From positions 3,477,511 through 3,509,510 of the forward strand of contig CAXXEA010000003.1 in NCBI GenBank assembly GCA_963674885.2: a stretch of DNA of 32,000 bases. The letters are read 5' to 3'. A program made the position numbers and the translations under genes. Each line of letters opens with the position of its first letter. The first letter of the stretch is position 1. Of the stretch, positions 17,409-17,790 are shown piece by piece. Under the pieces are notes generated by a model. That model saw nothing but the letters and a program-made list of their open reading frames with translations, did no database searches and was not told the DNA's origin. This stretch comes from Desulfobacterales bacterium. GTDB taxonomy: Bacteria; Desulfobacterota; Desulfobacteria; Desulfobacterales; UBA5852.

Positions 17409-17732
17409 TCAGTCGATAAAACGTCCGACACTGTTTTTAAAACAGGCCAACAGCGGTCTGTTGAGACAATAACAGGTGCCGGGGCCTTCCACGGTGCCGA
17501 TGATAACGCCGGCCTTCTTGAGTGTTTTCAAATGCTGGCTGACGGTGGATTGGGCCAGGGGCAGACGGTTGACCAGTTCTCCGCAAAAGCACTGCTTTTC
17601 CGCTTTCAGGAATTGAATGATCTGCATGCGGATGGGATGTCCCATGGCTTTGAAAATCCGAGCCATTTCATCCTGCGTAAGGCGCGAATGGTCCGTATCG
17701 TTGGTCTGTCGGGTGGGGTTTATCATTGACAT
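17409..17732 (-). CDS. arsR: ArsR/SmtB-family metalloregulator
   Basis: IFKAMGHPIRMQIIQFLKAEKQCFCGELVNRLPLAQSTVSQHLKTLKKAGVI is a winged HTH with the alpha3 CxC motif (C48, C50). A second CxC (C87, C89) and C96 lie in the C-terminal part. It is directly upstream of and co-oriented with hgcAB. Confidence 0.9.
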   Translation of the reverse strand: MSMINPTRQTNDTDHSRLTQDEMARIFKAMGHPIRMQIIQFLKAEKQCFCGELVNRLPLAQSTVSQHLKTLKKAGVIIGTVEGPGTCYCLNRPLLACFKNSVGRFID

Positions 17733-17746
17733 GCGATTCTTTTTTG

Positions 17747-17770
17747 ATTTATCGTAAAAAAACGATAAAT
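17747..17770. promoter_or_regulatory. Perfect 9-6-9 inverted repeat, candidate ArsR operator
   Basis: ATTTATCGT (17747-17755), then AAAAAA, then ACGATAAAT (17762-17770). It lies 15 bp upstream of the arsR start codon and overlaps the predicted -10. Confidence 0.5.
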
Positions 17771-17790
17771 GGTTCGAGGCTGATTGTCAA
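17762..17790 (-). promoter_or_regulatory. Sigma70-like promoter for arsR-hgcAB
   Basis: On the minus strand: TTGACA (17790-17785), a 17-nt spacer, then TATCGT (17767-17762). The predicted transcript start would be ~20-25 nt before the arsR ATG, which has no obvious SD. Confidence 0.4.

Follow-up and report, generated by a model that had tools for sequence, protein, structure and literature searches.

The control of hgcAB expression is an open question in mercury biogeochemistry, where the abundance of these genes predicts methylmercury production poorly. Here we analyse an arsR-hgcA-hgcB locus in a 32-kb stretch of a Desulfobacterales genome (assembly GCA_963674885.2, contig CAXXEA010000003.1, positions 3,477,511 to 3,509,510; hereafter the window, to which all positions refer), and in particular a palindrome upstream of arsR that we predict to be the operator of the ArsR-type regulator encoded there. 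In Pseudodesulfovibrio mercurii ND132, arsR2 (DND132_1054) lies upstream of hgcAB and is co-transcribed with them, and transcription of arsR2-hgcAB rises with As(III) (arsenite) and As(V) (arsenate) (Gionfriddo et al. 2022/2023; bioRxiv 10.1101/2022.10.17.512643). The text of that preprint describes a four-Cys motif in ArsR2 and makes no mention of an operator, promoter or palindrome (bioRxiv 10.1101/2022.10.17.512643).

The other closely related system is ArArsR of Arsenicibacter rosenii SM-1, described as a new ArsR type with Cys41, Cys43, Cys80, Cys82, Cys107 and Cys108 (Zhang, Wu, Huang, Zhao, mLife 2025, PMC11868830). Its binding site, established by DNase I footprinting and electrophoretic mobility shift assays, is 5'-TTTTATCGTAATATTGCGATCACAATC-3', which contains TTATCGT-N6-GCGAT (PMC11868830). 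As(III) is recognized through Cys41, Cys80 and Cys82, and methylarsenite, MAs(III), through Cys41 and Cys82; a C80S mutant lost the response to As(III) only, and C43S, C107S and C108S mutants behaved like the wild type (PMC11868830). According to its authors, the type is common in Cytophagaceae, Spirosomaceae and Flavobacteriaceae, and their paper makes no mention of hgcAB, mercury or Desulfobacterota (PMC11868830). The name ArArsR in this sense was found in no other paper in the literature searched.

Judged by sequence, hgcAB in the window appears to be wired to an arsenic sensor. Our reading is that a dimer of a four-Cys ArsR sits on the palindrome and represses arsR-hgcAB until a trivalent arsenical releases it, and we give this reading as a whole a probability of about 80%.

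Promoter and predicted operator of arsR-hgcAB

The promoter, the palindrome, arsR, hgcA and hgcB all lie on the minus strand of the window (Table 1). As in hgcAB-linked regulators of the ND132 ArsR2 type, arsR stands directly upstream of hgcA-hgcB in the same orientation and its product carries the four-Cys motif. A preliminary description of this DNA had already placed arsR immediately before hgcA on one strand. The products of hgcA and hgcB pass their NCBIfam cutoffs in agreement with it, and HgcA contains the cap-helix motif NVWCAAGK. The arsR stop codon is 19 nucleotides (nt) from the hgcA start, the arsR-hgcA spacing is equal in the related loci L081, L084 and L085, and no terminator was found in the 19-nt gap.

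Read along the minus strand, ATTTATCGT (17770-17762), TTTTTT and ACGATAAAT (17755-17747) are followed by 14 nt and the arsR start codon, ATG (17732). The preliminary description had reported a perfect inverted repeat at this place, which the repeat finder (arms 17747-17755 and 17762-17770, 100% complementary, 6 nt apart) and a pattern search both recovered; its distance of 15 base pairs (bp) from the ATG is in fact 14 nt. The pattern of the 24-mer palindrome has a single match in the window at up to three mismatches and none in 100 dinucleotide-preserving shuffles. Its conserved core, on the plus strand, is ATCGT (17751-17755)-N6-ACGAT (17762-17766). We considered one further copy of the motif, a one-mismatch variant at 14842-14857 within a coding region, and attributed it to chance, about one such match being expected per 32 kb.

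A TTGACA box 17 nt from a TATCGT hexamer that falls within one palindrome arm is present as previously described. The pair TTGACA/17/TATCGT on the minus strand matches the consensus at 10 of 12 positions. Across a 3.1-kb region, the promoter scan returned five promoter-like sites against 1.6 expected and by itself proves little. The arsR start codon is the first ATG (17732), which is conserved among relatives; the second Met codon reads ACG in L084, L085 and L001 (alignment A1).

Conservation at arsR-hgcAB loci

A scan of one genome per species gave 80 ArsR loci, 18 of them with hgcA directly downstream (HgcA tblastn). Four long contigs (ArsR 66-87% identical), ND132, four other Pseudodesulfovibrio genomes and one 4.8-Mb genome were added. 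All 29 hgcA-linked loci, P. mercurii ND132 included, have the exact core ATCGT-N6-ACGAT no further than about 100 nt upstream of arsR. Three of the 29 are further Pseudodesulfovibrio genomes, and the other 26 all have the core within 130 nt. A search of this kind had been named in the preliminary description as the means to refute its operator, which came through it intact. The background is low: the exact core occurs six times in the remaining 604 kb of fetched DNA, or 0.0014 per 142 nt. A TTGAC precedes TATCGT by 16-19 nt (mostly 17) in 26 of the 29 loci; the remaining three carry TTGATT, TTGTCA or TTTACA instead, at a distance of 17 nt (4-5 of 6 positions matching). When the spacer between the rubrerythrin-like gene (rbr) and arsR was aligned across six relatives with 66-87% protein identity (alignment A1), its arsR-proximal part was found to have diverged, and the -35 box, the palindrome and the start codon were kept.

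The two sides of the core are not conserved equally. Of 26 hgc-linked sites, 25 retain the T before ATCGT, whereas only 12 have an A at the mirror position after ACGAT; at ars-linked sites, which are mostly from Bacteroidota and have different promoters, the same T is kept in just 34 of 55. Two bases of the -10 hexamer, the A at position 2 and the T at position 6, come from the core itself. Such a T/A asymmetry is unexpected from a symmetric protein site alone and fits an added promoter constraint at the -10 element.

The perfect 9+9 palindrome is a feature of the clade to which the window belongs, and the universal part of the site is T-ATCGT-N6-ACGAT-(A) with an AT-rich N6. An additional ATCGT-like pentamer 7 bp upstream is present at 17 of 26 hgc-linked sites, compared with 8 of 55 other related sites. 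Most hgc-linked promoters outside the window's clade have this pentamer, and the window holds the minimal, single-site version. Operators of Desulfovibrionaceae (L066, L087, L089, L091-L093) form a 23-bp palindrome of four quarter-sites, ATCG-N3-ATCG-N-CGAT-N3-CGAT, equivalent to two overlapping ATCGN-N6-NCGAT sites with a 7-bp offset. By its arrangement, this double element may be bound by two dimers.

For ND132 itself, the DNA upstream of arsR2 (protein P0258; locus L089, CP003220) reads ccgTTGACAaccgcagcttcatcgccTATCGTcgatgtACGATGaaagag and contains TTGACA-N17-TATCGT-CGATGT-ACGATG. The cysteines of P0258 (Cys26/47/49/86/88) are those published for ND132 ArsR2. In this locus (L089:2964-3024), the annotated arsR2 ATG overlaps the right half-site (ACGATG), about 8 nt after the predicted -10. 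Given this overlap, the mRNA either has no leader or is translated from Met8, 21 nt farther downstream.

The regulator and its putative arsenical site

The window protein has the winged-helix fold of the ArsR/SmtB family, alpha1-alpha2-alpha3-alphaR-beta1-beta2-alpha5, as judged by HTH_5, NF033788 and an AlphaFold2 (AF2) model. The model (predicted local distance difference test score, pLDDT, of 83) has helices at residues 20-30, 33-44, 53-55, 61-74 and 92-106 and strands at 77-82 and 85-90. Its best Foldseek matches are SrnR, SmtB, AfArsR and CgArsR; no solved structure of a close relative was found, the best sequence match being SrnR (7p6f, E = 3e-8). The recognition helix, A60-K69 (AQSTVSQHLK), is invariant in an alignment of 40 sequences (alignment A2).

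The cysteines are those listed in the preliminary description: C48-F-C50 (KQCFCGELV), C87-Y-C89 and C97, with none in residues 1-47. The 40 homologs of alignment A2 show no change at C48 or C89 and at least 90% conservation at C50 and C87, and C97 is found only in the closest relatives. In the AF2 model, the loop that follows helix 2 holds C48, a two-residue beta-bridge holds C50, and the wing strand 85-90 holds both C87 and C89. Pairing of the CxC strand with the wing would bring the four Cys together, in line with the homology model of ArArsR and the AF2 dimer model of ND132.

The ligand cysteines of ArArsR have counterparts here: C48, C87 and C89 correspond to Cys41, Cys80 and Cys82, and C50 to Cys43, and the 39-residue spacing from C48 to C87 is that from Cys41 to Cys80. 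By analogy, the two CxC motifs most probably combine into a single arsenical site, in which C48, C87 and C89 would be the As(III) ligands. The suggestion of two possible thiolate sensing sites is therefore not upheld: homology to ArArsR gives one site, Cys43 (the equivalent of C50) is dispensable, and C97 is not conserved.

Among hgcAB-linked relatives, the position of C87 is occupied by Ser in P0027 (L085:3001-3324, L086) and by Gly in P0035. Because ArArsR C80S answers methylarsenite and not arsenite, these two proteins may, by the same analogy, be natural MAs(III)-selective sensors.

The same operator at ars operons across phyla

We found the core well beyond hgcAB. At 60 related ArsR loci without hgc genes, the exact core lies just upstream of arsR in 38 and a one-mismatch core in 17 (55 of 60 in total), from which it follows that the operator is not specific to hgcAB. 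These relatives are spread over Bacteroidota, Planctomycetota, Chloroflexota, Myxococcota and other phyla, and arsenic genes lie behind most of them: ArsM, ACR3 and ArsD score above the NCBIfam cutoffs, and ArsC-type reductases just below. Nearly all related ArsR proteins contain CxC-N36-CxC. A protein search with a Desulfovibrionaceae member returned more than 7,000 proteins at E <= 1e-20, which indicates a large branch of the ArsR family. The site upstream of arsR in the window is, as far as motif distribution can tell, the family-wide operator of ars-operon regulators. The palindrome also agrees with the ArArsR footprint, both having TTATCGT-N6-[A/G]CGAT upstream of the regulator's own gene.

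Some ars-linked loci (L029, L033, L034 and L068) have a second site just downstream of arsR. In A. rosenii, the arsR-arsM intergenic DNA, as read from the supplementary primer ArarsMC-R-F, likewise holds a second element, TATCGT-ATTATT-ACAAT (PMC11868830). In the 4.8-Mb genome (L088:1082-6333), arsR-arsP-thioredoxin, arsR-hgcA-hgcB, a low-molecular-weight phosphatase gene (arsC-like) and an SBF/ACR3-like gene run in one direction, so that hgcAB are embedded in an arsenic gene cluster, and ATCGT-N6-ACGAT precedes the second arsR only.

Proposed mechanism and alternatives

In the mechanism that we favour, an ArsR homodimer would bind T-ATCGT-N6-ACGAT-A, the half-site centres of which are 11 bp apart, or one helical turn. 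The upstream half-site would double as the -10 element, TATCGT, of a sigma-70 promoter whose -35 element is the TTGACA 17 nt further up. Because the dimer would cover the -10 and start-site region, bound repressor would block RNA polymerase there and keep the arsR-hgcA-hgcB transcript off. As(III) or methylarsenite would be bound by one thiolate site per monomer, made of C48 in the loop before helix 3 and of C87 and C89 in the wing beta-strand; the protein would then leave the DNA and the operon would be derepressed. What we infer here is that this protein binds this site, where the transcript starts and which ligand is sensed. An autoregulated repressor with its operator on its own promoter and one arm doubling as the -10 element is what the preliminary description had proposed, and the conservation of the site together with the footprint of a functional relative argues for it.

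Several observations weigh against this mechanism. The promoter is a consensus prediction, and its -10 element, TATCGT, matches at only 4 of 6 positions. The compared loci were drawn by similarity to the query and are hence mutually non-independent. The authors of the ArArsR study put its site over the -35 element, whereas the window site lies over the -10, so the geometry varies by lineage. The window protein has F27 in place of the helix-1 Cys (Cys26 in ND132) of most Desulfobacterota members. Finally, ND132 ArsR2 also responded to treatments related to S-adenosylhomocysteine (SAH) (bioRxiv 10.1101/2022.10.17.512643).

The last point bears on whether the same repressor and operator might serve a physiological ligand other than an arsenical, namely Hg(II), Cd(II), Zn(II), Pb(II) or a metabolite of the methylation cycle, for example SAH, acting on the four-Cys cluster. 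All four Cys are strongly conserved although ArArsR needs only three for As(III), a neighbour-joining tree largely separates the hgc-linked ArsRs from the majority of ars-linked ones, and the ND132 authors, who saw a response to SAH-raising treatments, suggested that a site with four Cys might prefer Zn, Cd or Pb (bioRxiv 10.1101/2022.10.17.512643). We nevertheless consider a non-arsenical ligand improbable: the ArArsR data concern As(III) and MAs(III), most sampled non-hgc relatives precede arsenic genes, As(III) and As(V) induce arsR2-hgcAB in ND132, and in L088 hgcAB have arsC-like and acr3-like genes behind them, pointing the same way. Far less credible still is the idea that the palindrome acts as an RNA hairpin in the arsR leader or is bound by an unrelated protein. 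The segment would fold at -7.9 kcal/mol (z-score -2.9) if it were fully transcribed, but with the start predicted to fall within the palindrome, only part of the hairpin would be transcribed; the arms do not covary but are invariant, the flanks of the core are often non-complementary, as in ND132, and 17350-18050 has no Rfam match at E up to 1. On these grounds we rejected an RNA element. As for an unrelated protein, the motif accompanies this ArsR subfamily in different phyla regardless of which genes lie downstream, and ArArsR itself protects it (PMC11868830).

A further possibility would add to arsenical-released repression by ArsR and not exclude it: the palindrome could be a bidirectional operator, with the divergent rubrerythrin-like gene also under its control by way of a mirror promoter (Table 1), in which the -35 box lies over the arsR start codon and the -10 in the other arm. 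This hypothetical promoter matches the consensus at 10 of 12 positions and no other promoter-like site was found on the plus strand between the palindrome and the rbr start. All six loci of the rbr-arsR clade, where rbr is syntenic, keep its -35 box (TGTCAA), which is absent from a set of hgc loci none of which gave a rubrerythrin-like match. The box, however, coincides with the Met-Ser codons of arsR and may be conserved for coding alone, the 5' leader that would result, some 200 nt long, lacks conservation, and a 1-nt insertion in L001 spoils the spacing to the -10. We regard bidirectional control as rather doubtful.

For hgcAB, our comparison supplies a defined cis-element, present at every arsR-hgcAB locus examined including the genetic model ND132, and this element is tied to a sensor type for which the DNA site, the ligands and the ligand cysteines have been experimentally determined in an ars operon. 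It also yields a specific ligand hypothesis for hgcAB, with As(III) or MAs(III) acting through C48, C87 and C89, and makes it possible to predict from the motif which methylators have hgcAB under arsenic control. A broader proposition, to which we lean rather less than to its opposite and which we offer tentatively, is that hgcAB are a regular member of the arsenic stimulon (As(III), methylarsenite) across Desulfobacterota, sharing both sensor type and operator with arsM, acr3 and arsC operons. Were it true, the native role of HgcAB would lie in the chemistry of arsenic or another metalloid rather than mercury, and arsenic speciation would gate methylmercury production in nature.

Gene neighbourhood

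Table 1. Features of the arsR-hgcAB locus (positions in the window)
Feature	Position	Strand	Description
Nuclease gene	15334-15963	-	staphylococcal-nuclease domain; overlaps hgcB 3' end
hgcB	15881-16171	-	2x[4Fe-4S] ferredoxin; NF040864 112 bits (cutoff 99)
hgcA	16190-17389	-	corrinoid protein, 399 amino acids; NF040863 (NCBIfam HgcA) 419 bits (cutoff 275)
arsR	17409-17732	-	107 amino acids; ArsR/SmtB repressor; PF01022 (HTH_5/ArsR) E 2e-11; NF033788 67 bits (cutoff 55)
Hypothetical mirror promoter	17726-17755	+	TTGACA 17726-17731 (over arsR start codon), 18 nt, TATCGT 17750-17755 (other arm)
Operator palindrome (predicted)	17747-17770	both	ATTTATCGT-N6-ACGATAAAT; perfect 9+6+9 inverted repeat
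Predicted -10	17762-17767	-	TATCGT; inside left (upstream) palindrome arm
Predicted -35	17785-17790	-	TTGACA; 17-nt spacer to TATCGT
Rubrerythrin/ferritin-like gene	17963-18442	+	159 amino acids; PF02915 E 1e-8; divergent from arsR

The rubrerythrin-like gene next to arsR is syntenic in L001 and L081-L086. Within the clade, synteny extends over an EF-hand gene, O-methyltransferase, TPR and rubrerythrin genes, arsR-hgcAB and the nuclease gene. The nuclease gene keeps its position in L081, L084 and L085, where it is followed by HTH_17 and CxxCxxCC genes. In L083, whose ArsR is 83% identical, the hgcA region (3319-4550) yields, in place of a 399-amino-acid gene, two short gene calls, one of 86 amino acids on the minus strand and one of 139 on the plus strand; either hgcA is disrupted there or the assembly is in error.

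Terminator-like hairpins at 17791-17808 (+) and 17464-17447 (-) were treated as chance, with four in the scan against 2.9 expected. The hairpin at 17791-17808 (+), GCACGACCAGCATCGTGC followed by CGTTTTTGAA, adjoins the -35 box, is not conserved in L084 and L085, and is probably a chance occurrence.

Comparison with known systems

The metal sensors CadC, SmtB and CzrA, with their 12-2-12 operators, share with the window system a winged-helix dimer (template-modelling score about 0.6-0.7) and an inverted repeat, AT-rich and about 24-26 bp long, that overlies the promoter. The window protein differs from them in lacking both the N-terminal Cys pair of the alpha3N site (Cys7/Cys11 in CadC) and the alpha5 His/Asp/Glu site, and the half-sites are TGAA...TTCA in those systems and ATCGT...ACGAT here.

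The R773 and E. coli ArsR (type 1, ELCVCDLC) has the same fold and family, is autoregulated and is released by As(III), and its CxC stands in roughly the same place before helix 3. The window protein, however, does not have the Cys32-Cys34-Cys37 triad: the third ligand, C37, is absent, R773 ArsR in turn has no wing CxC, and the operator sequences are unrelated. The preliminary description had called the first CxC the canonical alpha3 motif, which is approximately right; relative to SxHL it lies one residue earlier than C32/C34, by residue count and not by an alignment tool. ArsR1 of Geobacter sulfurreducens, known from a biosensor paper, was considered as a relative and set aside as an ELCVCDL-type protein.

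ArArsR is much nearer. Its recognition helix, decoded from a supplementary primer, is QATVSQH against QSTVSQH here, the primer's GVCY matches the wing strand, and the regulator is autoregulated from the first gene of its own operon. The two differ in host (Bacteroidota against Desulfobacterota), in the genes controlled, arsM-arsC in the arsRMC operon against hgcAB, in the additional, dispensable C-terminal pair Cys107/Cys108 of ArArsR, and in the site, the ArArsR footprint having one mismatch in the right half-site and the window palindrome being perfect at 9+9. The preliminary description had held operator and ligand to be unsettled, which is right for hgcAB; for this ArsR type both were determined in 2025 on the arsRMC operon (PMC11868830). 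A search for text with TATCGT, ACGATA and ArsR returned primer matches only, and in the literature searched we found no paper tying the four-Cys ArsR type and its operator to hgcAB. The link drawn here between the ArArsR and hgcAB literatures is likely new within that literature.

Closest in gene context is ND132 ArsR2, which shares the four-Cys motif, 52% identity over 94 amino acids with the window ArsR, and a TTGACA-N17-TATCGT-N6-ACGAT promoter-operator. ND132 differs in its extra Cys26, at the position of F27 in the window protein, and in a four-quarter-site operator where the window has a single palindrome. We conclude from these sequence comparisons that the window system is not a new kind of regulator but an hgcAB-linked member of the four-Cys ArsR type, with its predicted operator placed on the -10 element.

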